A DNA stretch of 64,000 bases from a virus (Duplodnaviria; Caudoviricetes), in the IMG/VR virus record IMGVR_UViG_2877794441_000003, positions 2,815 through 66,814 of that record; one strand, 5' to 3'. Shown here piece by piece: positions 51,810 through 64,000 of this stretch. The notes under the pieces were generated by a model, which ran no database searches, was not told where the DNA came from, and worked only from the letters and a program-made list of their open reading frames with translations. Numbering within the stretch: position 1 is the first letter of the stretch; every line of letters begins with the position of its first letter. The position numbers were made by a program, and so were the translations under genes.

Positions 51810-53288
51810 CTAAATTGAAGACTTGTAAGGAGAGATAATAGTCCTAGGAGAAAAGTTACTCATCGAATACTCAGGAAAAATATCGAGACATGTAACATTT
51901 CCAAGCTTTGACAGCAAAACCTTACCCTGCGTCGAGAGTACCTCAATGGCCGAATCTAACCGCTTTACTTTTCGTAACTTCCCAGGCCCCTTTTGCAGTA
52001 TGATATTCTTTGCTACAAATCTATCACCTGCCTCACGCCTTACTTGTAGCCAGTCATCCAACTCTTGTGCGTCGATCTCTTCCTGAGGCAGCGATGTAAA
52101 CAGACGCAGAAACTCGCCAGAGTACCAAAAGCACACATCAGCAGCAGCATCCAAGGTCTCCAGAGCTATATCACCACTCCCTCTCTCAAAGAAATGAAAC
52201 AGGGCAGCCACCCTTGCAATATTGCCTGCCAACTTTGACGCATGATCACCCATACCAAAAAACCTTCCTCCCGGCCCAATACCCGACTCAATCGCATTGA
52301 AAATTTCTATCCATTTTTGAGCCGCCGCCTGAGAAAACCTAATCACTAACCTGGACCTAGCCGGATCCATCAAGAATCCAACACTTTCTTTAAGTATCTC
52401 CCCAATGCGCTCAGAGAATTTCTCGCAACAATTCCAAGTGACCACCCCTCCACCAATCAATCTAGTTCCCTGGGTCGATCTTGGATTGCAAACCAAAAAC
52501 CTAGCCCACAAACCAGATCCCCGTGATATCTCTCCATTCTTTTCCATATAACTCAAGAAAGTTTTTTCTTGAACCATTATCGATACCGTCAGACGAGCTC
52601 TTAGCTCGTAGCTTTCAGACGATACTCGATCAACAGTTATTGCATCCCCACTCCACAAGGCATTCTGCTTCGACAAATCATTAAATGCCTTGCCACTCAA
52701 CACTCCCCCACCCTCACTAGAAATTAGCCCTGCTGCAGGAATGTTCTGATATAACCCCAAAAACAAAGCCTCTGAGGTAGCATCTTCGTAGATTAACTTA
52801 AAACGTCTAGGCTTGACCGGCTCATTACCCATATGCGCCATAAATATCTGATATTCGTCACCTTCCTCTTCATCACCTGAACGAAGTATTTCCTTCAACA
52901 TGGCCTTCCGGCGAGCCTCCCAGACTGACCATTTCGCATTCCATTCAGAAAGCTTCTTAAGATAAATCAAATCCTTTTCATCCTGAAAATTGCGAACTCC
53001 TCTAAGAAATATATTCTCCGCCGTAGACTTCCTCTCTCCAGAGTTCGCAATCGTCAGCAGCATCAGCGATGCTGGAACTATTTGTCCATTCGGCTTACAA
53101 ACATCAATCAAACCTTGAGAAGCTGTAGCGATCGCCGTCAGAGCAGATGAAAAAACGAGTGCCCTCGGGGCCTTTATATGCCCTTCCGCCTCATCCACCG
53201 CACTCACTATCACCGGTAAAGACATATACCTTGGAAAGCCCCCCTCCAAAGCAGAGCCCCCCCAAGACCCAAAGCTAGAGAAACTCAT
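51810..53288 (-). CDS. YfjI family protein (DUF3987)
   Basis: IANSGERKS Walker-A-like, EDATSEAL, SSEGG, SGLWARFL motifs; low GC. Confidence 0.85.
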   Translation of the reverse strand: MSFSSFGSWGGSALEGGFPRYMSLPVIVSAVDEAEGHIKAPRALVFSSALTAIATASQGLIDVCKPNGQIVPASLMLLTIANSGERKSTAENIFLRGVRNFQDEKDLIYLKKLSEWNAKWSVWEARRKAMLKEILRSGDEEEGDEYQIFMAHMGNEPVKPRRFKLIYEDATSEALFLGLYQNIPAAGLISSEGGGVLSGKAFNDLSKQNALWSGDAITVDRVSSESYELRARLTVSIMVQEKTFLSYMEKNGEISRGSGLWARFLVCNPRSTQGTRLIGGGVVTWNCCEKFSERIGEILKESVGFLMDPARSRLVIRFSQAAAQKWIEIFNAIESGIGPGGRFFGMGDHASKLAGNIARVAALFHFFERGSGDIALETLDAAADVCFWYSGEFLRLFTSLPQEEIDAQELDDWLQVRREAGDRFVAKNIILQKGPGKLRKVKRLDSAIEVLSTQGKVLLSKLGNVTCLDIFPEYSMSNFSPRTIISPYKSSI

Positions 53289-53291
53289 AAA

Positions 53292-53549
53292 TCAAACACC
53301 TTCAGAGATCACGACAAAATCTTCCTGGCCTCTTTGAGGCCTAGATCCAATCCACCGATATATATCTTCCTCAACCCAACCCACCGCAAACCTCCCCAAC
53401 TTAATTGGCTTTGGGAATGTACTATCGTATCTAGGCGACATTGGATTTAGTCGGTCATAAATTGTCGATCTACTCAGCCCAATGCACTCTCGCAACTGCC
53501 GAATGCGTAAAATTCTTAATGTTGATTTACCACTACTTTCGTTGCCCAT
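53292..53549 (-). CDS. alpA: AlpA family regulator / RDF
   Basis: ILRIRQLRECIGLSRSTIYD..FPKPIKLG..VGW. Confidence 0.9.
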   Translation of the reverse strand: MGNESSGKSTLRILRIRQLRECIGLSRSTIYDRLNPMSPRYDSTFPKPIKLGRFAVGWVEEDIYRWIGSRPQRGQEDFVVISEGV

Positions 53550-53742
53550 CACCACGCCCTCTTCAGTTGCGAACTCAATAGGGAAGGACTCTACAGCCCG
53601 TGCCACTAGGAGTCGTCAGGGGTGCTAAATGGGTTTTCCAAAGCTAAGCAGATGTATTGACATTTTAGAAACACTGCGATCTAGAAATTGTCATCCTAGT
53701 AGCTTGTCCCCACCCCACCGGATTTAGCCGGGACCACTGCAG

Positions 53743-53776
53743 CTGCTATTCCTGCTATTAGTAGCAGGAATAGCAG
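53743..53776. repeat. Perfect 15-bp inverted repeat
   Basis: CTGCTATTCCTGCTA-TTAG-TAGCAGGAATAGCAG. Confidence 0.85.
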
Positions 53777-53862
53777 TCTTGCTTGCCGTTCAGATCCCTT
53801 CCGTCCTTCGGAACCCAGTCGCCCCATAGCCAGGAAAAACGTTGACTCTCAGTCAGAACGAC

Positions 53863-54309
53863 TCAGGGGGCCACTGATTGCCGGTCGATCCACAACTGCA
53901 GTAAGGCTTTTCCAGGCCCAGTGGGATGACGTCGCCCCTGCTCCCAGTCCTGCAGCGTGCGAGCGCTGACCCCCAAATGCGCAGCGAGCTCTTGCTGGGT
54001 TAGCCTCAAGCGTTGGCGCAAGCAACATGCAAGCCTGATGATGCTTGAGTCTGGCGTGACTCCGTGACACATCTTTGGCCGTTTATGCGGGAAGATCTCC
54101 GAGACTTCGAAATTAGACGAAGCAGCTCCAGCTAAAGGTAATGTGTAATTTGACTCCGGCGCTGTATTTACCCTCGCATGCCATGGGAGAGGAGCAGCCC
54201 GGACAGATGGAGATGAACTCTCCGGTTCATACCGAAGCTCCTGGCACTGTTGTTCATACTCAGGATGTTCGGCAAGAAATTTACGACGCCAATAATCGCT
54301 GTAGCTCAT
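53863..54309 (-). CDS. XRE-family HTH protein
   Basis: C-terminal LTQQELAAHLGVSARTLQDWEQGRRHP. Confidence 0.75.
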   Translation of the reverse strand: MSYSDYWRRKFLAEHPEYEQQCQELRYEPESSSPSVRAAPLPWHARVNTAPESNYTLPLAGAASSNFEVSEIFPHKRPKMCHGVTPDSSIIRLACCLRQRLRLTQQELAAHLGVSARTLQDWEQGRRHPTGPGKALLQLWIDRQSVAP

Positions 54310-54391
54310 ACGAAAGACTCCTATCTAGTGAGTTATAGTGCGGCAATGCCGGACCATACAATAGGTAAATTGAACAGGTATGCCGCAGCAC

Positions 54392-55084
54392 TCAGATTCG
54401 GCTGGTAGTGAACACAGCAAAGCCTTGCCCTAACTCTTGCGCCTTGCTGTACGTCTTGCACAAGTAGCTCATAGCGTAGACAACCGGCCTGAGCGAGTCA
54501 GGAAAGCGTCGATCCAAGCACTGGTAAACCCGCCCACTTAGTTTGTCTTGGCAGGCATGTACTAGCCCTGACATCTCGTATTCAGAACAACCAATTGCCC
54601 AGGCCCAAGCACGCACGACGCGATGAAACAAGTTGTTCCTACTATAAGTACCGTCGTCGCTAGGCCCGTAGTTACCTAGGCCCCCGATGGCGTCGTAGTT
54701 GAGCAGCAACATGACGTGGTAATGCGGTGCTTGACTGCTGTTACGCTCTCGACACCAGATGTAGCGGATATCAGTCGTGTACTTTGTACTCGCCCAGGTC
54801 AGCTCTTTACTTAGATGGTAGAAGAAGCGACTCATCACCTCATTGCTGACGAGCGCATCTGACGGCATCAGGCCGACGGGGTAACGCAAGTCTACCCTAC
54901 AGACCAAGGTACGGGCCTGTACCGAGAGACAGCTTTGCAAAGTTTCAAGTCCACGCTCCAGGTAGTTTTCAATCAAAGGGCCGTGTGTCAGCTGCTGCTG
55001 CACAGCGAAACCACGATACTCGTTGCCGTAGTGTAGTTTGAGTTTAGTATTGATTGGGTGACGCTTCGGTTGATGATGAAACAT
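54392..55084 (-). CDS. Inovirus Gp2 family (HUH endonuclease-like) protein
   Basis: CRVDLRYP, YIWCRE, PHYHVMLLLN (HUH) and SYLCKT (catalytic Tyr-like) motifs. Confidence 0.8.
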   Translation of the reverse strand: MFHHQPKRHPINTKLKLHYGNEYRGFAVQQQLTHGPLIENYLERGLETLQSCLSVQARTLVCRVDLRYPVGLMPSDALVSNEVMSRFFYHLSKELTWASTKYTTDIRYIWCRERNSSQAPHYHVMLLLNYDAIGGLGNYGPSDDGTYSRNNLFHRVVRAWAWAIGCSEYEMSGLVHACQDKLSGRVYQCLDRRFPDSLRPVVYAMSYLCKTYSKAQELGQGFAVFTTSRI

Positions 55085-55781
55085 AGTTAATTTCCTGTCG
55101 GCCGTATATGGAGGACTCACCGGCAGGCACACGGGACCAGGTGCACTCAAGCACCTTGTTTCGACTTATACGCCTGGACTATCAACACGTTGACTTGCAG
55201 TCAACACTGCACATTGCTCCTGCAATTTATGGCAGATCTGTATTGCAAACAAATAACATGATAGCGCTCTATTGGTGAACGATATCTATTACGGTAGAAT
55301 CCATAGCAACCACATTAATTACTGGTTACTGCATCGATACTTATTAGACGCATACTACTTAAACCGTAACAGTAGCGATGCCGCACATGCAAAAAACCCA
55401 AGGAATAGACCTCATTAGAAACCCACCCCCAGGATAACAGCAAGAAAACTCAAACAATAAAACCCAAAAAGATTCCATTTTCATTAAAAGCAAAAGCCGT
55501 ATGAGCCGACAGGCGTGTGCCGCCTGCAAAATTAAGTCATGTAGACACCTCATACCACCAACACGTAAAAACTTACGACACTGCCGTATTAATGTCACCA
55601 CGAGGACTTTAAAGGGCAGTTATAAACGGCTCTGCCGTACATAGACGATCCGATACGAGCTGAATCAAAAAAATCTCAGATCTATATCACCTCTGTGAAC
55701 GCCCCACAGTATCAAATGCCGTCGGGAATTTGGCGTGCCAGCTCTTGGCTAAGCACGCTCATCACTTGAGAGGATCTGGAT

Positions 55782-56111
55782 ATGTATACCCCTTGCCCAA
55801 GCTGCAATTCGGGACGAATCATCACGAAAAATATCGGTAAACAAACAGGCGGATTAATCGGTGCTGCAGGCGGTGCCGCCAGTGGTGCTGCCGGTGCCCT
55901 ATCGGGCGCCGAAGCCGGCGCGCTACTGGGAGTTGTCGGTGGGCCGGTGGGCATTGCTATCGGCAGCATCGCCGGGGCGATTTTGGGTGGCCTGTTTGGC
56001 GGGGTCGCGGGCGGCATTGCCGGGGCCACGCTGGGTGAGCAGCTCGATGACAAGATCCTGGCTAATTATCAATGCCTGGTGTGTGGCTACAGCTTCAGCG
56101 TCAACCGTTAA
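55782..56111 (+). CDS. Glycine-zipper membrane protein flanked by CxxC motifs
   Basis: CPSC ... GxxxG-rich hydrophobic hairpin ... CLVC. Confidence 0.7.
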   Translation: MYTPCPSCNSGRIITKNIGKQTGGLIGAAGGAASGAAGALSGAEAGALLGVVGGPVGIAIGSIAGAILGGLFGGVAGGIAGATLGEQLDDKILANYQCLVCGYSFSVNR

Positions 56112-56182
56112 GCCGTTGTGAACAGGCGTCGCTTGTTGATGAAACGACGCTATTTCCCACTTCTTCGTAAGGAATAATTCTC

Positions 56183-57151
56183 ATGGCTCATCTCGTTGAA
56201 CAAATGGCTTACGTTGGCGCTACCCCTTGGCATGGCCTGGGTAACCACCTGCCCCGCAAACAACCTATTGAGGTCTGGCAGCGTGAAGCCGGCATGGACT
56301 GGCAGATTCTGGAAAGCCCAGTCCACTTCAAGTCGGACGCGGTCGGCCACCTGGGTGCCATACACTCCTTCCCTAAGCAGAAGGTGCTCTACCGTTCCGA
56401 CAGCAAGGCTCCTCTGTCGGTGGTCTCGCAGCGCTATCACACGGTGCAACCGCGAGAGGTTCTGGAGTTCTACCGCGATCTCACCGAAGTCTCCGGCTAC
56501 GAGTTGGAAACGGCCGGCGTGCTCAAGGGCGGGCGCAAGTTCTGGGCACTGGCGCGTACCGGGCAAGGTACAGAGCTGAAGGACAACGACCAGGTCAACG
56601 GCTACCTCCTGCTGGCCACCTCCTGTGATGGCACCTTGGCCACCACAGCAACGCCAACCACCGTCCGCGTGGTGTGCAACAACACCCTGACCATCGCCCT
56701 GGATGGCAGCAGTCGCGCCATCAAAGTACCGCACAACACTCGCTTTGACCCAAAGACAGTGAAGAGGCAACTGGGCATCGCCGTCTCGCAATGGGACGAG
56801 TTTATGTACCGCATGCGCGCACTGTCCGAGCGCAAGGTGCAGTGGCATGAGGCATTGGGTTACTTCATGAACGTGATGTGTGAAACCAGCCCGACCGGCG
56901 CTCTGCCGGAGCAACTGCCCAACGAGCGCGCCCTACGCAAGGTCCAGGAACTGTACGAGGGCCGCGGTCGCGGCAGCCAACTGGACTCAGCACGCGGCAC
57001 TGCTTGGGGCCTGCTCAATGCCGTGACCGAGTACGTCGACCACGAGCGCCGTGCCCGCAGTAACGAGTACCGCCTGGACTCGGCATGGTTCGGTCAGGGA
57101 GCACAGATCAAACAACGCGCCCTGGATGCCGCTCTGCAACTCGCCGCCTAA
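56183..57151 (+). CDS. DUF932 (phage/plasmid-like TIGR03299) protein
   Basis: PWHGLGN, ETAGVLKGGRKFWALA, VRVVCNNTL and GTAWGLLNAVTEY motifs. Confidence 0.88.
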   Translation: MAHLVEQMAYVGATPWHGLGNHLPRKQPIEVWQREAGMDWQILESPVHFKSDAVGHLGAIHSFPKQKVLYRSDSKAPLSVVSQRYHTVQPREVLEFYRDLTEVSGYELETAGVLKGGRKFWALARTGQGTELKDNDQVNGYLLLATSCDGTLATTATPTTVRVVCNNTLTIALDGSSRAIKVPHNTRFDPKTVKRQLGIAVSQWDEFMYRMRALSERKVQWHEALGYFMNVMCETSPTGALPEQLPNERALRKVQELYEGRGRGSQLDSARGTAWGLLNAVTEYVDHERRARSNEYRLDSAWFGQGAQIKQRALDAALQLAA

Positions 57152-57173
57152 CCCTTACTTACCTCACCCCTTG

Positions 57174-57207
57174 CGCCCGGTCAGCCATGTGCTGGTCGGG
57201 CGTTTTT
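57174..57207 (+). terminator. Terminator after DUF932 gene
   Basis: CGCCCGGTCAGC...GCTGGTCGGGCG plus T5. Confidence 0.55.
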
Positions 57208-57226
57208 ATACCAGCAGGTAAAAACG

Positions 57227-58231
57227 ATGAAAGCAACGTCATTGAATAGCAGCACCTGCCAGAAACGCCCCGCCCTGCGCCTGGTCAGCACCAAGGAGCT
57301 GCCCCGCGAGGACTGGTTGCAGATCCGCAAGCAAGGCATCGGCAGTTCGGATGCTGCCGCTGCGGTGGGTCTGAATCCCTACAAATCGCAGCTGGAGCTA
57401 TGGCTGGAGAAGACCGGTCGCGATGCCAGCATGCCCAAGGTCGATCCTCACGATGAGGAAAGCCCGCTGTACTGGGGCAATGTGCTGGAGCCTATCGTGG
57501 CCTGGCATTACAGCAAGCGCAGCCTGCACAAGGTCCGACGGATCAACGCGGTGCTGCAGCATCCCGATCCGGCGCTGCCCTGGATGCTCGCCAATATCGA
57601 CCGCGAGGTGATCGGTACCGACGATGTGCAGATCCTAGAGTGCAAGACTGCCGGCATAAACGGGGCACGCCTCTGGAAAGAGGGCGTGCCCGAATATGTG
57701 CAACTGCAAGTCATGCACCAGCTTGCAGTTACTGGCAAACATGCCGCTGATGTGGCGGTGCTGCTCGGTGGCCAGCATCTGGAAATCCATCGCATCACAC
57801 GCGACGAGGAGCTGATTACGCGGCTGATTGACCTAGAACGGCTGTTCTGGGACTACGTCGTCAGTGACACCCCGCCACCGGCCGATGGCACAGCGTCTGC
57901 GGAAGCGGCTTTGCGCTGCCTCTATCCCGAGGATAACGGACAGACCCTGGACTTCAGCCAGCACACGGAACTGTCCAGCACCTTTCTTGAACTCAAATCT
58001 GTTCGTCAGAACATTGCTCAGCAAGAAACACGTGAGGCACAGCTTAAGCAAGTTCTGCAGCAGGCCTTGGGGGAAGCCACCCGTGCAGAGTTTGCCGAGG
58101 GCTACATCAGCTGGAAGCAGTCCAAGGACAGTATTGGTCTGGATGTCGAACAGATGCTCAAAGACAAGCCGTACCTGCAGGCCCGCTATCCCAAGACCAA
58201 CGCAGGCAGCCGTCGCTTCCTGATCGGCTGA
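57227..58231 (+). CDS. YqaJ-like viral recombinase exonuclease
   Basis: RKQGIGSSD, WGNVLEP, ANIDR, LECKT and QVMHQL motifs. Confidence 0.9.
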   Translation: MKATSLNSSTCQKRPALRLVSTKELPREDWLQIRKQGIGSSDAAAAVGLNPYKSQLELWLEKTGRDASMPKVDPHDEESPLYWGNVLEPIVAWHYSKRSLHKVRRINAVLQHPDPALPWMLANIDREVIGTDDVQILECKTAGINGARLWKEGVPEYVQLQVMHQLAVTGKHAADVAVLLGGQHLEIHRITRDEELITRLIDLERLFWDYVVSDTPPPADGTASAEAALRCLYPEDNGQTLDFSQHTELSSTFLELKSVRQNIAQQETREAQLKQVLQQALGEATRAEFAEGYISWKQSKDSIGLDVEQMLKDKPYLQARYPKTNAGSRRFLIG

Positions 58232-58248
58232 AACCGTCTGCTCACCCT

Positions 58249-58282
58249 AGCCACCGGACCGTTCACGTCCCGGTGGCTTTTT
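58249..58282 (+). terminator. Terminator after yqaJ-like gene
   Basis: AGCCACCGG...CCGGTGGCT plus T run. Confidence 0.6.
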
Positions 58283-58307
58283 TATTTTCAGATCAAGGAG
58301 CACCACC

Positions 58308-59222
58308 ATGCTCAAAGGTTTAGCCATCACTCCGCCGGTACTCGGGCGCATTTCCATCGGTAAGGTCGTCGAGAAAAACGGCAAGCGTCTGCCTGAGAAA
58401 GATGATCAGTTCACCATCACCTCGCAAGTCCAGAGCCGTGACGGCTGGTTAATGCATCCACTCAATGAGGAACTGCGCAATGGCCAGGATGGCAAGCTAC
58501 GCAGCATTCCCATCCGATTGCTGTTCAACGAACCGGACCTCAACTTTCGCGCGGACTACAGCCTGTTCGACCGTACCACCGGCAGGCCGTTGTGCGTCGG
58601 CAACGGTGAAACGTGTAAGCGCTTGACCAAGGACGGCATCCAGTCGCTGCCCTGCCCTTCACCTGATGGCTGCTCACTGGCCCAAGGCAATGCCTGCAAG
58701 CCTTACGGTCGGCTGAACGTGGTGATTGGCGATGACGACCCACTGGGCAGTTTTGTGTTCCGCACCACCGGATTCAACAGCATTCGCACCCTAGCAGCGC
58801 GTCTGCATTACCTGCAAGCCATCTCTGGCAATCGCCTGGCCTGTCTGCCCCTGGAGCTGCGTCTGCGCGGTAAATCCACGCGGCAGAGCCATGGCACGCC
58901 GATCTTCTACGTCGATATCACAGTGCGCAGTGGACTGCCCCTAGAAGACGCCTTGCTCGCCGCCAAGCAACTGGGGGAAGCCCGACAAGCCTCGGGCTTT
59001 GACCAAAGCGCCTTGGACCACGCGGCCCGACAGGGTTTTAACAATGGAGCCTTTGAAGACAGCGAGGAGGACACCGGCGCCATTGTCGAAGAGTTCTTTC
59101 CCTCTACTGAAGACCCACCCAGCAACGCAGCCCCCCAGCTGACAGCGTCTTCAAAGCCCTCACTGGCTCAGAAGTTGGAGACTCAGTCTATCGGGCACAG
59201 CACGAGGCCTTCAGTCCAATAA
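58308..59222 (+). CDS. Conserved hypothetical protein of YqaJ cassettes (putative recombination partner)
   Basis: MLKGLAITPPVLGRISIG, LCVGNGETC and FRTTGFNSIR motifs; always-adjacent synteny recalled, not computed. Confidence 0.65.
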   Translation: MLKGLAITPPVLGRISIGKVVEKNGKRLPEKDDQFTITSQVQSRDGWLMHPLNEELRNGQDGKLRSIPIRLLFNEPDLNFRADYSLFDRTTGRPLCVGNGETCKRLTKDGIQSLPCPSPDGCSLAQGNACKPYGRLNVVIGDDDPLGSFVFRTTGFNSIRTLAARLHYLQAISGNRLACLPLELRLRGKSTRQSHGTPIFYVDITVRSGLPLEDALLAAKQLGEARQASGFDQSALDHAARQGFNNGAFEDSEEDTGAIVEEFFPSTEDPPSNAAPQLTASSKPSLAQKLETQSIGHSTRPSVQ

Positions 59223-59267
59223 CGCTTTTTTCAACCTCCCCAGCATGCCTCGTCCAGGAGTACCGTC

Positions 59268-59765
59268 ATGAAATATCACAAGCTCAAAGCCGGTGAAGCG
59301 AGCGGCACCTACGTCATGGAATCACCCGTCACCGAAGCCGACATCCTGCAGATGGCGCAACAACTGGCCATGAGTCGCCTATCTAAAGGCCGGGCCCTGA
59401 CTGAGCCGAAGCAGGTCTTCAGCCACCTGCAAACACTGTTGCAGTACCATGAGTATGAGGTCTTCGCTCTGCTGCTGCTCGATTCCAAACACCGGATTAT
59501 AGGCTTTAGAGAGCTGTTCAGAGGCACCCTGGATGGGGCTAGCGTGTACCCGCAAGAAGTGGTCAAGATCGCCTTGGAACACAACGCCGCGGCCCTCATT
59601 ATGATTCACAATGATCCCTCCGGAGACCCGGAGCCCAGCCAAGCGGATCGCACGCTTACCACCGTCCTCAAAAACGCTTTAGACATGGTCGGCACCCGAA
59701 TATTGGATCATGTGGTGGTGGGTCATAAAGGCTGCGTGTCATTGGTCGAACAGAGCTATCTATAG
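59268..59765 (+). CDS. radC: RadC / JAB domain protein
   Basis: EVFALLLLDSKHR, GTLDGASVYP, HNDPSGDPEPSQAD and ILDHVVVG. Confidence 0.88.
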   Translation: MKYHKLKAGEASGTYVMESPVTEADILQMAQQLAMSRLSKGRALTEPKQVFSHLQTLLQYHEYEVFALLLLDSKHRIIGFRELFRGTLDGASVYPQEVVKIALEHNAAALIMIHNDPSGDPEPSQADRTLTTVLKNALDMVGTRILDHVVVGHKGCVSLVEQSYL

Positions 59766-60782: not shown

Positions 60783-62732
60783 TCACAAGGCCGTTTCGAT
60801 CTGCACCGCAGTCGGCTGCGCACGGTCGAGGACATGGAGCTGGGCAATGATCTCGCGAAGTGACTGGCTAATCTCACCGCCGGTGTGGCGCTGCTGGTTG
60901 TGCTGGACAACGTTGCTCAGCACTTCCAGGTTCTGATCGATCTCTTGCAGACTGCGACCGATCATGTCGACCCGCGCGGCCAGTGCATCCACAGCAGGTT
61001 GCAGCGGGCTGCTGTGTTGCATCGTCATCAGCTGTGCGACCAGCCCCTTGATTTCGCTGGCGGCCAGCTCGGCCTGTTGAGTGACCCCTTCGTAGCGACT
61101 GTCGAGGGCGACCATGCGCCGGCCGCTTTCGGAAACGGCCTTGAGGCCCGAGAGGATTTTTTCACGCAGGTCGCCCACCAGGTGGGTCATGCCTTCGACG
61201 TTGACTTGCAGGGTTTCACTGGAACCCTGGAAGCTGGCATGGGCATTACGTTGCAGGTTCAGCGATTCCTCGTTGGACTTCTTCATGCCCTCCATGGTCT
61301 GGCCTACGTTGTTCGACAGGCTGTTGACCGCCGAGGAAATGCCCAGCGTGGCTTCGGACAGGCTGGCGGACATCTGCGTCATGTTGTCGGTGAAGCTGCT
61401 GCCCATCAGGCCAATGGTCTCGCCCAGGTCTTGCTTGAGATGACCCAGCACGCCGGCGACACCCTCCTTGAAGTCAGCAATGGCTTGCTGCAGGTCACCT
61501 GCCGAGGCGCCGATGGTGCCCGCGGCGCTGGCCATCTGTTCAGCCGCGCCGGAAATGGCTGCAAGGTTGCGGCTGTTACTGTCGATCAAGTGTTCCATGG
61601 CCTGGCGCGTGGCTCGACCATCTTCAAGCTGTTGCTGGTTCTGCTCGCCGTGCTCCTGCAGTCGGGCATCGATGGCGCCCAGTGCAGTCAGCGTCTTCTC
61701 GCCGGTGCTGTTCAACGTGTGCAGCGCCGGGAGGGCACTTGCCAGTGTCTTGCCGCTCGCTTGCTGGGCCTGCAGGACGTCCTGCCGGACCTGGTTGCCG
61801 GCCTGGGCTTCCTGTACCAGGGCTTGCCTGGTCTGGTTGCCGGCCTGGGTTTCCTCTACCAGGGCCTGCCTGATCTGGTTTGCGGCCAACTGATCCTTCT
61901 GCAGTTTCTGCAGATTCTGATTGCCAGTCTGTTGCTCCTGCAGCAGCCCCTGCAACGTCTGGTTGCCGGCTTGCTGTTCCTCCAGCGACGCTTTCAGGGG
62001 CAGCAGCAAGGCGTCGATGCTGGAGCGGTTGTCCGCGAGCGCCTGCTGGGTCGTGGCGGCGTAGTGCTTGAACAGGCGTGCCTGCAGCTCCAGCAACTGC
62101 CGTTGACTCTCGTTCTGAGCGGCAAGGTTCTGATCAAGCCGGCCCAAGGTTTCGAGCAGCGTCGCCTGCGCTTGCTGGCGTTCGCCCTGGCGTTGCAGGC
62201 GGCTGCTGTCGAAGGCCTGCTTCATCTGCCCGACACACCAGCGCAGGCGCCGCTCTTCGTATCCGTTGCTGGCGGCATAGGCTTTGAGCAGCAGGAAGGC
62301 GAGGATGCCCCAGGTCGAGGTCTTAAACTTGGTACCCAGGCCTTCCATCATGCCCATGAGGTTGGTCATGGCATTGTCCATGCCGCCCCCGGCACTGGCT
62401 TCGACCAGAATCGTCGAGGCCTTGTTCAAAGCGATGCCCAGGCCCAGGAAGGTACCCAGCAGGCCGAGGATCAACAGGATCCCGGGCATGAACTCGATCA
62501 TTTTTTCGCCGGGGCTGGCCACCGCGGCACTGATCTCGTTCACTGAGCCGTGCTCCACGTCCAGGTCGTCCTGGCCGCCGCCGTTCCACTTGCGTTCCCA
62601 GGTCTGTTCCCGTGCCCCGCGCTTCAACGCAATCACGGTCACCAGCGAAAGGATTCCGATCAGCCCGGCGAACAACAGTTGTAGCGGGTCTGCTGATGGC
62701 AGCAGAAAGGTGAGGATCTCCTGAAAATTCAC
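60783..62732 (-). CDS. zorA: ZorA/MotA-like protein with long cytoplasmic helical tail
   Basis: Three TMs including PGILLILGLLGTFLGLGIAL and KFKTSTWGILAF, then ~500-aa Gln/Ala/Leu-rich tail; directly upstream of MotB-like gene. Confidence 0.72.
   Translation of the reverse strand: MNFQEILTFLLPSADPLQLLFAGLIGILSLVTVIALKRGAREQTWERKWNGGGQDDLDVEHGSVNEISAAVASPGEKMIEFMPGILLILGLLGTFLGLGIALNKASTILVEASAGGGMDNAMTNLMGMMEGLGTKFKTSTWGILAFLLLKAYAASNGYEERRLRWCVGQMKQAFDSSRLQRQGERQQAQATLLETLGRLDQNLAAQNESQRQLLELQARLFKHYAATTQQALADNRSSIDALLLPLKASLEEQQAGNQTLQGLLQEQQTGNQNLQKLQKDQLAANQIRQALVEETQAGNQTRQALVQEAQAGNQVRQDVLQAQQASGKTLASALPALHTLNSTGEKTLTALGAIDARLQEHGEQNQQQLEDGRATRQAMEHLIDSNSRNLAAISGAAEQMASAAGTIGASAGDLQQAIADFKEGVAGVLGHLKQDLGETIGLMGSSFTDNMTQMSASLSEATLGISSAVNSLSNNVGQTMEGMKKSNEESLNLQRNAHASFQGSSETLQVNVEGMTHLVGDLREKILSGLKAVSESGRRMVALDSRYEGVTQQAELAASEIKGLVAQLMTMQHSSPLQPAVDALAARVDMIGRSLQEIDQNLEVLSNVVQHNQQRHTGGEISQSLREIIAQLHVLDRAQPTAVQIETAL
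61731..61982 (-). repeat. Six 42-bp (14-aa) repeats in ZorA-like tail
   Basis: EEQQAGNQTLQGLL/QEQQTGNQNLQKLQ/KDQLAANQIRQALV/EETQAGNQTRQALV/QEAQAGNQVRQDVL/QAQQASGKTLASAL. Confidence 0.75.
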
Positions 62733-64000
62733 GCTGCCACCTCGACCAGGCGGCTGGCACGTTCACGGCTGGCTTCTTCGAAGATGTTGGCGAAATCGAT
62801 GATCAGGCTCTGTTCGTCTTCGGTCAGCTCTTCCCAGCGTTTGCCATGCTGGGCACAGTCGATGATGATCATGCCGACCTCCTGGCTGTCGGTCAGCAGG
62901 TACGCATCGTCGGCGAAGTCTTCGGGCGCTTTCTCGAGCACCTGCAGGAACCCCTCAGCGGCGTAGACATAGTTGCGCATTTCCTGGTTGCGCTTGCGCA
63001 GTTGATCCATCTGCGCCTTGAGGGCCGGCAGACGGGCCTGGATATCGGCCAGCGCGGCCTTCTCTTCGGCAGAAGGTTCGCCGAGGTTCTGGCTGATCTT
63101 CAGCTGGCGCTCCTGAACCTGCAGCTTGGCCACCGACTCACTGAGGGTTTTCCAGTCCTTCTCCTGCTGCTCCAGGTTGCAACCCCAGGCCATGATCAGC
63201 TCTTCGAACACGAACGGAATCAGCTTTTTGCCGAAACGTGCGGCGATCACTTCATCCAGGCGCACCGCCTGGGCATCGCTGACCTGAGGTTTGGCCTTGA
63301 GCAGCTCTGAGGCGATCTCGACCAGGAACAGATCGTCACGATTGATCGCGTCCAGGTCCTGGGCGTGAATCAGTCGCTGCTCAGTGTCCTTGAGCAGTTT
63401 TTGCGAGGCGCGCAGGCGCAGGTAGTGGTCGAAATCGCTGATGTTGTTGTTTTCCAGCACCTGCTTGATACGCGTGCTCAGCTGGGCGTACTGGGTGATC
63501 AGGGTTGCCAGGTCCAGGGCACGGCCAGCTTCGCCGCGCACGTCCTCGCGGGCTTCGCGCAGCACTTCCTCGTGGGTCGCCGCCTGCGCCATTTCTTCAT
63601 CGTTCAAGACCACGTCGCGCAAGATTTTGGCCTTGGCGATGGCCCACTCGACGGCAGCCTTGACCTGCTTGGCCAGTGCGGTCTTTTCCCAGTTCAGCAA
63701 CGCCTCCAGGGCCTTGTCGAAAGCCCGGATGGCCGTGGCCACCCAAGGGAAGGTCGGCAAGGCGACGGTTGCCCATTCGGCGGCGATCTTCAGCGCCGGC
63801 CTTACGACCGTGGCGATGAAGGGCTTGACCTTGTTCCACACCTCCTTGACCTTGCCGACAAAGGATTCGGCCTTGGTCGCCATCCAGTCCAGTGCATCCC
63901 TGGCCTTCTCACGTACGGTATCGTACGTGGTGCGCACCACCTCTACCGCCGCCGCACCGACGCTCTTGATGGCGCTCCAGCAATCCGAAAAAAAACCCAT
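62729..64000 (-). CDS. Unknown 423-aa helical protein, coupled to zorA-like gene
   Basis: ATG at the last base of the window; TGA overlaps GTG of the downstream gene; amphipathic Trp-rich N-terminus and coiled-coil middle/C-terminus. Confidence 0.8.
   Translation of the reverse strand: MGFFSDCWSAIKSVGAAAVEVVRTTYDTVREKARDALDWMATKAESFVGKVKEVWNKVKPFIATVVRPALKIAAEWATVALPTFPWVATAIRAFDKALEALLNWEKTALAKQVKAAVEWAIAKAKILRDVVLNDEEMAQAATHEEVLREAREDVRGEAGRALDLATLITQYAQLSTRIKQVLENNNISDFDHYLRLRASQKLLKDTEQRLIHAQDLDAINRDDLFLVEIASELLKAKPQVSDAQAVRLDEVIAARFGKKLIPFVFEELIMAWGCNLEQQEKDWKTLSESVAKLQVQERQLKISQNLGEPSAEEKAALADIQARLPALKAQMDQLRKRNQEMRNYVYAAEGFLQVLEKAPEDFADDAYLLTDSQEVGMIIIDCAQHGKRWEELTEDEQSLIIDFANIFEEASRERASRLVEVAA

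Follow-up and report, generated by a model that had tools for sequence, protein, structure and literature searches.

What does an unnamed, all-helical protein do next to a gene pair that resembles the motor of the Zorya defence system? This question is raised by the end of a 64,000-nucleotide stretch (hereafter the window) of a Caudoviricetes record in IMG/VR (IMGVR_UViG_2877794441_000003, positions 2,815 to 66,814), where a gene that we call X is followed on the minus strand by a ZorA-like and a ZorB-like gene. An earlier note, made from the letters of the window, had described X as a candidate membrane-acting effector that is recruited by the ZorA-like tail. In the reading that we favour, to which we assign a probability of roughly 0.4, X is the defining subunit of an undescribed four-gene Zorya-like cassette, and its N-terminal arm provides a membrane output under the control of the motor and of an AAA+ ATPase.

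The open reading frame (ORF) of 423 codons that the earlier note had reported does exist, even though its strand had to be corrected to minus: it runs from position 64,000 down to 62,729, giving 423 residues and a stop, while the plus-strand frame across these coordinates is riddled with stops. The ATG of X is the final codon of the window and also forms the terminus of the 66.8-kb provirus record. We nevertheless regard it as the true start, because homologues are mostly 416–427 residues long (120 listed of 240 found), because the aligned homologues share an MG[FWL][FWL]S N-terminus, and because a GAGGA Shine-Dalgarno sequence lies 7 nucleotides 5' of the ATG in a 94%-identical Pseudomonas locus.

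To place X in its genetic context we collected 59 loci, 55 from one-genome-per-species contigs and four from assemblies. The former number is a lower bound that is biased towards sequences retaining two motifs, since the scan relied on the closer alignment and the diverse one offered no conserved peptide. In all 57 loci with sufficient flanking sequence we found the same four genes in the same order on one strand, namely an IetA-like AAA+ ATPase, X, the ZorA-like and the ZorB-like protein, with genes that are tightly spaced or overlap (the stop of X overlaps the GTG start of the ZorA-like gene as GTGA); the remaining two loci end at contig edges. The 57 loci stem from Gamma- and Betaproteobacteria, one Sphingomonas and one Cloacimonadota metagenome-assembled genome, and no further conserved gene beyond the four was found across them. 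Homologues with as little as 21–26% identity to X still reside within this cassette. X therefore almost certainly belongs to a four-gene cassette. The association with a zorAB-like pair that had been proposed from the window is borne out at 57 of 57 loci, rather than homologues occurring mostly without zorAB, whereas the four-gene operon that includes the ATPase had been missed. Indeed, a 96%-identical relative, which shares the RadC-side flank of the window, has the AAA+ gene as the immediate 5' neighbour of X, from which we conclude that the window truncates the operon and that its AAA+ gene lies just past the window's end. As the operon comprises four genes, any mechanism must take in the ATPase.

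The ZorA-like protein (P0002) combines a MotA/ExbB-type membrane domain with a long helical tail, as ZorA does. In PADLOC it matched ZorA1 (2.3e-7) and was aligned by the ZorA3 model across residues 70–615, and the ZorA model of NCBIfam scored 1.4e-5, which is under its cut-off; the MotA_ExbB model of Pfam failed to reach the protein. A profile built from 24 family members aligned with chain residues 140–690 of the type I ZorA from Shewanella (8VVN_C, E 1.9e-7), covering both motor and tail, and with the type II ZorA 8VVI_F (E 3.3e-3). This family profile was required, as a single-sequence phmmer search against the PDB missed ZorA. The distal segment of the tail, residues ~380–530, is conserved, while tail length varies, with matching ORFs that span about 447 to 704 residues across the family. 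In the window the proximal tail contains a 42-nucleotide tandem repeat that codes for Gln-rich units of 14 residues (..QAGNQTRQALVQE..), and gain or loss of such repeats could tune the length of the tail. We also observed that the zorA-like gene is disrupted in 2 of the 57 loci: it is split into two ORFs in Haemophilus haemolyticus (L034:7188-9257) and broken by ~1.2 kb in Alishewanella jeotgali (L055, 7305-10375), where the interrupted gene is directly followed by a second ZorA homologue with a weaker match (L055:11456-13305).

The ZorB-like protein (P0003) has a MotB-like transmembrane (TM) helix with an ion-binding Asp and a peptidoglycan-binding domain, and it matched ZorB1 (1.9e-19) and ZorB3 (4.4e-16) in PADLOC as well as OmpA in Pfam (7.4e-10). 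The TM Asp (I/ADLM) is kept in at least 90% of 54 sequences. In at least 90% of the same 54 sequences the periplasmic domain also keeps two Cys (GSAC... and ...CTVYDDN), and their conservation suggests a disulfide in the peptidoglycan-binding domain. Overall, we consider it very probable that the cassette is a relative of Zorya.

The first gene of the cassette, which always precedes X in the homologous loci, encodes a classical AAA+ ATPase of ~315 residues. It is matched by IetA/TRIP13 models and not by Zor models: PF00004 in Pfam scored 9e-26, IetA in PADLOC 7e-29, and IteA in NCBIfam 3e-29, the latter with 102 bits against a cut-off of 510; among solved chains, Afg2, VAT and Cdc48 are the closest. 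Both the Walker A (GPPGTGKT) and the Walker B motif (FFDEAD) are conserved, and pore loop 1 reads ESK[F/Y][M/V]G in 51 of 57 sequences. Given that a pore loop of this type is the classical threading motif of AAA+ proteins, this subunit is most naturally read as an unfoldase or remodeller. Neither an IetS-type protease nor any other protease gene was found in or beside the cassette.

X itself is a new protein family. It has no match in Pfam or PADLOC (E <= 0.1) or in NCBIfam, and the absence of nuclease, helicase and Walker motifs noted from its letters agrees with these family searches. A search of PDB sequences with the X profile returned a designed helical bundle as the sole match (E 0.0034), and the ESM Atlas returned unnamed clusters only. 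Nor does X correspond to one of the known Zorya partners ZorC, ZorD, ZorE, ZorF or ZorG, which supports the idea of a different output; here, ZorF was compared through PADLOC models only and ZorG by profile, and the possibility that X is a distant ZorG (DUF2894) was ruled out with an hhalign probability of 0.75%. A search for fused long forms of X found none, which is weak evidence.

We next turned to structure and obtained two AlphaFold models of X, the one based on the deeper alignment (97 sequences) having an overall predicted local distance difference test (pLDDT) score of 77.7 and a confident core at residues 110–420 (~85–98). The dominant element of this core is a long antiparallel hairpin formed by helices 260–306 and 311–356, each of 46–47 residues, from which we estimate its length at ~70 Å. 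The most conserved motifs of the family, LIPFVFEE...W and AAEGFLQxLEK, are located at the hairpin base. Hence, in the model the two segments that had been described as heptad-like are the two arms of one intramolecular hairpin and not necessarily an oligomerising coiled coil. The models were searched with Foldseek against the PDB twice and against BFVD once, and with VIA-align against a wide set of 48,161 chains twice, without a single significant or specific match to the whole model, in line with the view that X has no known enzyme or housekeeping fold; this statement applies to the whole model, because sub-domains were not folded separately. The structural matches that were listed are dominated by hairpin residues 259–361. 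In the Foldseek lists ClyA and AhlC rank near the top, with E values of 0.05–0.4 and TM-scores of 0.13–0.35, and AhlC reaches a VIA-align Z of 9.0 over the hairpin only, on par with unrelated hairpins. The hairpin of CHMP4B aligns with a Z of 8.9 (root-mean-square deviation 1.7 over 74 residues) and that of Shrub with 8.7, which again is the level of generic hairpins, and the VIA-align rows as a whole (Z ~9) fall below the ~13 expected of helical proteins.

The N-terminal part of X, in which the earlier note had seen amphipathic helices rich in Ala, Val and Lys with regularly recurring Trp, is the part that points towards a membrane. Its composition was confirmed, as residues 1–130 carry a net charge of +6 and contain 26 Ala, 16 Val and 14 Lys, and 7 of the 10 Trp of the protein lie within the first 119 residues (8, 39, 55, 76, 86, 104 and 119). 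The regular periodicity was not: successive Trp are 31, 16, 21, 10, 18 and 15 residues apart, so they recur but lack a strict period, and only W39, W55, W86 and W119 are well conserved (in 40–56 of 68 diverse members). The amphipathic character, in turn, is a property of the family. The mean helical hydrophobic moment of residues 1–120 exceeded that of shuffled sequences in 97 of 97 members (mean z 5.3, minimum 2.9), compared to a z of only 1.6 outside this region. The charge of the arm is positive in every one of the 68 diverse members, with a mean net value of +7.7, and that of the middle part and of the C-terminus is negative (mean -11 and -8); in the X of the window the last 66 residues, 358–423, carry a net charge of -12, as had been noted for the C-terminal domain. 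The arm begins with MGFFS, continues with a segment rich in Ser, Ala, Val and Gly and the four conserved Trp, and includes a hydrophobic LPxFPW turn. Its first 35 residues comprise 45% Ser/Thr/Gly/Ala (30% Ser/Thr/Gly), 16% charged and 35% bulky hydrophobic residues. No TM segment was predicted in the window's X, since its highest Kyte-Doolittle window of 19 residues is only 1.13, which agrees with the earlier description. Across the family a TM-grade window exists in 22 of 97 members, 21 of these windows being inside the arm, and two distant members, read by eye, seem to start with a true TM helix. AlphaFold leaves the arm poorly placed (pLDDT < 50 for residues 1–64 and ~62 for residues 65–110), although residues 1–64 hold conserved positions. 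Its hydrophobic moment, its polar face and its predicted disorder off the membrane are those of an amphipathic lipid packing sensor (ALPS)-like or cationic amphipathic helix. We put the chance that the arm is membrane-directed at about even, and hold it possible, albeit with some doubt, that it is the killing or blocking output of the system.

A second line of evidence on the arm comes from a distant relative, P0237, a 558-residue protein on a metagenome contig. Residues 291–538 of P0237 align to residues 162–418 of X (hhalign probability 98.8%, E 5.5e-17), and its residues 5–104 form a TIR_2 domain, so that TIR stands where X has the amphipathic arm; the neighbouring gene encodes a 629-residue TIR_2 protein. 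Because P0237 fuses TIR_2 to the core, we conclude that the core is a separable module, the N-terminal position of which can hold an effector-type domain. Exchanges between TM or amphipathic modules and TIR effectors are known from abortive-infection systems such as Pycsar, CBASS and Thoeris. The swap of TIR for the arm would fit an arm in an effector-type position, and the X core may, judging from the alignment, represent a wider signalling domain that extends beyond ZorAB cassettes. When we looked for further effector swaps with a more sensitive profile, we recovered close relatives only.

Taken together, we propose the following working model. By homology to Zorya types I and II (PMC11946911; PMC11890865), a peptidoglycan-anchored, ion-driven motor of the ZorA5B2 type would sense the envelope perturbation that accompanies phage entry and pass the signal along its long cytoplasmic tail. 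The tail would then contact the conserved, acidic, all-helical core of X, including the hairpin. More speculatively, a hexamer of the AAA+ ATPase might remodel X, either freeing the arm from the acidic core or recycling X afterwards, for which a handle could be offered by the conserved ...VEVAA at the C-terminus or by MGFxS at the N-terminus; X might also mask itself electrostatically, with the basic arm held on the acidic core. Finally, the basic and conditionally folded arm (residues ~1–125) would act as the output by binding to the inner membrane where the phage enters, or by inserting into it, and thereby depolarise the cell or block genome entry instead of cutting DNA.

Several observations weigh against this model. 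The likeness of X to pore-forming toxins (ClyA, AhlC) or to ESCRT-III is at the level of generic hairpins, and the evidence for the role of the ATPase consists of its strict co-occurrence and its pore loop. Only a single TIR-fused relative was found, and it comes from a 4.4-kb contig with incomplete context. Moreover, the window's own X is among the members that lack a TM-grade segment, and residues 36–125 contain many invariant positions, a pattern that could suit a protein–protein interface with the ZorA-like tail or the ATPase as well as lipid binding.

The most serious rival takes up this last point. Here, the unfoldase itself would be the effector, threading and unfolding either phage proteins that arrive at the entry site or a host target, and X would be an adaptor or tether, the core of which links the AAA+ ring to the ZorA-like tail while the arm would do no more than position the complex at the membrane or the tail. 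The ATPase is as strictly kept in the cassette as X, its Walker motifs are intact and its threading loop is canonical, and IetA, its nearest relative in defence, acts with a separate partner. X, for its part, has no enzyme-like fold, and the invariant arm positions hint at a protein interface. However, the cassette contains no protease or other downstream enzyme, and the TIR-for-arm swap puts an effector-type domain on X and not on the ATPase. Furthermore, residues 5–35 keep their amphipathic composition while their sequence drifts, which looks lipid-directed. On balance we consider the adaptor model unlikely, though it is the alternative to be taken most seriously.

Alternatively, X might be a regulatory brake that keeps the ATPase or the motor inactive, comparable to the action of PspA on PspF, and that is removed when the motor fires; the arm would then dock on the pentameric ZorA-like tail instead of on lipid. 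That the basic arm and the acidic core complement each other in charge would suit such a brake, as would the conserved distal segment of the tail and an arm that carries conserved residues yet cannot be placed in an AlphaFold monomer. Yet X has no sequence kinship to the PspA or ESCRT-III families, a brake would leave the system without an identified output, and the TM-grade arms in about a fifth of the members sit badly with pure docking on the tail. We regard this explanation as improbable.

Even less probable in our view is that the cassette has nothing to do with defence and is a mobile module for envelope stress or membrane repair, in which an amphipathic coat is recycled by the ATPase as in ESCRT-III/Vps4 or PspA. 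The amphipathic N-terminal helix and the ~70 Å hairpin of X, paired with a classical AAA+ protein, are reminiscent of such coats, and the structural rows include the hairpins of CHMP4B, Shrub and CdvA (Z 8.4–8.9). Those rows, however, tie with SMC proteins, designed bundles and other hairpins below the helical expectation, the Snf7 and PspA models of Pfam do not match X, and a patchy, island-borne occurrence next to restriction–modification (R-M) genes, BrxR/WYL genes and integrases resembles defence cargo and not a housekeeping function. Lastly, that the core of X is an all-helical enzyme of a new fold with the arm as a mere localisation signal is very improbable, for even though several of its polar residues vary little or not at all between closer homologues (H192, R195, R197, D222, D223, E267, E349, E356 and R414) and E267, E349, E356 and R414 are conserved to at least 90% in wider alignments, searches of Pfam, NCBIfam and, by profile, the PDB revealed neither a catalytic motif nor a cofactor-binding family, the conserved residues gather in an interface-like manner at the hairpin base, and the fusion of the same core to TIR in P0237 argues for a scaffold.

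The genomic surroundings bear on whether the cassette serves defence. In the window the cassette is flanked by genes of an integrative island, and the same island type bears the cassette in the 96%-identical relative and in Escherichia coli, where we found it in 1 of 5426 complete genomes. In the E. coli carrier, chromosome NZ_LR536430, YfjI/YfjJ genes lie on one side of the cassette and an integrase on the other, a type I restriction subunit is encoded nearby, and in RefSeq the four cassette products are annotated as two hypothetical proteins (X and the ZorA-like protein), an ATP-binding and an OmpA/MotB protein. Further carriers adjoin type I R-M systems, a BrxR gene and helicases. Among the 147 nearest flanking ORFs, WYL domains (11), WCX domains (7) and integrases (9) were detected, and of the 10 genes that we tested at the position immediately before the ATPase, 8 encode a WYL domain (five of these also match WCX and one HTH). 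From this context of integrase islands, R-M systems and BrxR/WYL regulators we consider the cassette to be probably anti-phage. It is scarce among phages and plasmids, with one occurrence in 50,697 phage records and one in 72,556 plasmid records.

Several side observations concern these neighbourhoods. The WYL genes of L008, L019, L028, L034, L040, L043, L054 and L056 are on the same strand as the cassette and immediately precede it, and by their domain make-up they appear BrxR/CapW-like. The island genes of the window separate the prophage body from the cassette, which may thus be the cargo of a separate CP4-57/P4-like island and not of the prophage proper. In the two closest Pseudomonas relatives a conserved pair of hypothetical genes (269 and 382 residues, no Pfam match) precedes the ATPase (L002:6709-8694 and L073:6731-8717) and may form an adjacent two-gene system. 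Paired genes for dynamin-like/MMR_HSR1 GTPases adjoin the cassette in 4–5 loci (e.g., L067:6691-10652). Of the five cassette-bearing Burkholderiaceae genomes, three Paraburkholderia (G001-G003, corresponding to L047, L036 and L041) have a ZorG (DUF2894) gene elsewhere, and therefore probably also hold a type III Zorya system at another site. The features of the window are collected in the table.

Table. Positions of the cassette genes, their sub-regions and the flanking island in the window.
Feature	Positions	Strand	Description
Gene X (P0001), 423 aa	62729..64000	-	all-helical, matching no known family; second in the cassette order
X residues 1-125, basic amphipathic arm	63626..64000	-	composition, hydrophobic moment, alignment
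X residues 260-356, long antiparallel helical hairpin	62933..63223	-	AlphaFold, pLDDT > 90
X residues 358-423, acidic C-terminal helical domain	62732..62929	-	conserved ...LVEVAA tail at its end
ZorA-like protein (P0002), 649 aa	60783..62732	-	three-TM MotA/ExbB-type N-terminus and ~480-residue helical tail
Tandem repeat of 42 nt, 2.5 copies, 84% matches	61781..61887	-	proximal tail of the ZorA-like protein
ZorB-like protein (P0003), 222 aa	60103..60771	-	single TM helix, conserved Asp (..SIADLM..), OmpA-type peptidoglycan-binding domain
Integrative-island flank	51810..59765		DUF3987/YfjI, AlpA, HTH, YagK/YfjJ, DUF932, YqaJ exonuclease, Gp3-like recombination directionality factor, RadC

How does the cassette compare to known systems? 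With ESCRT-III/Vps4 and PspA/Vipp1, X shares a long hairpin and, at the N-terminus, an amphipathic helix that carries bulky aromatic residues, with ESCRT-III/Vps4 also the pairing with a classical AAA+ protein, and with ClyA an all-helical soluble form. It differs from all of them in that its sequence matches none, its structural scores stay at Z ~9 and Foldseek E >= 0.05, and its hairpin is located in the C-terminal half. As in IetAS (Gao_Iet), the ATPase is nearest to IetA models, is a member of the classical AAA clade and contains a pore loop of the threading type. In contrast to IetAS, which consists of IetA and the serine protease IetS, it is shorter (~315 residues), scores far from the IetA-type cut-off (102 versus 510 bits), is coupled to a membrane motor and has no protease gene in or next to the cassette. 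The effector swaps of Pycsar, CBASS and Thoeris are mirrored in a conserved core that carries either a membrane-directed N-terminal module, as in X, or TIR, as in P0237; unlike in those systems, there is one TIR variant, the core is a new all-helical one with no nucleotide-binding signature, and the arm is mostly amphipathic and not composed of TM helices.

The closest comparison is with Zorya, for which three types have been described, type I (zorABCD), type II (zorABE) and type III (zorGABF) (Doron 2018; Payne 2021, PMC8565338; Hu 2024, PMC11946911; Mariano 2025, PMC11890865). The cassette resembles all three in the MotA/ExbB membrane domain and very long, length-variable helical tail of its ZorA-like protein, in the TM Asp and peptidoglycan-binding domain of its ZorB-like protein, in having soluble partners encoded in the same operon, and in its location in defence islands. 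It departs from them in its partners, an IetA-like ATPase and X, which are unrelated to ZorC, ZorD, ZorE, ZorF (DUF3348) and ZorG (DUF2894). The type-specific combinations ZorC plus ZorD, ZorE, or ZorF plus ZorG are accordingly missing, both partner genes lie upstream of zorA, there is no nuclease or helicase, and the ZorA-like protein is too divergent to reach the curated cut-offs of NCBIfam or to be matched by MotA_ExbB of Pfam. As types I–III have neither an AAA+ partner nor an X-like protein, we consider the cassette a new Zorya variant, and in the openly readable literature we found neither a ZorAB-like motor with an AAA+ partner nor a 'type IV' Zorya. Tentatively, it may even be a fourth kind of Zorya that combines the motor and an AAA+ unfoldase with X, the arm of which would attack or seal the inner membrane, while its core would also serve elsewhere as a TIR-carrying signalling scaffold. 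The mechanistic models of types I and II so far end in a DNA-directed effector that is recruited by the ZorA tail. The cassette retains the motor and the tail, while the effector side has been swapped for an unfoldase and a putative membrane-seeking protein. If the cassette defends its hosts, the ZorAB sensor would amount to a general platform for signalling, the outputs of which can be exchanged, and X would offer a tractable case of a soluble partner that reads out rotation or conformational change of the tail, besides adding a new family and domain (the X core, also fused to TIR) and a new detection target for PADLOC and DefenseFinder.

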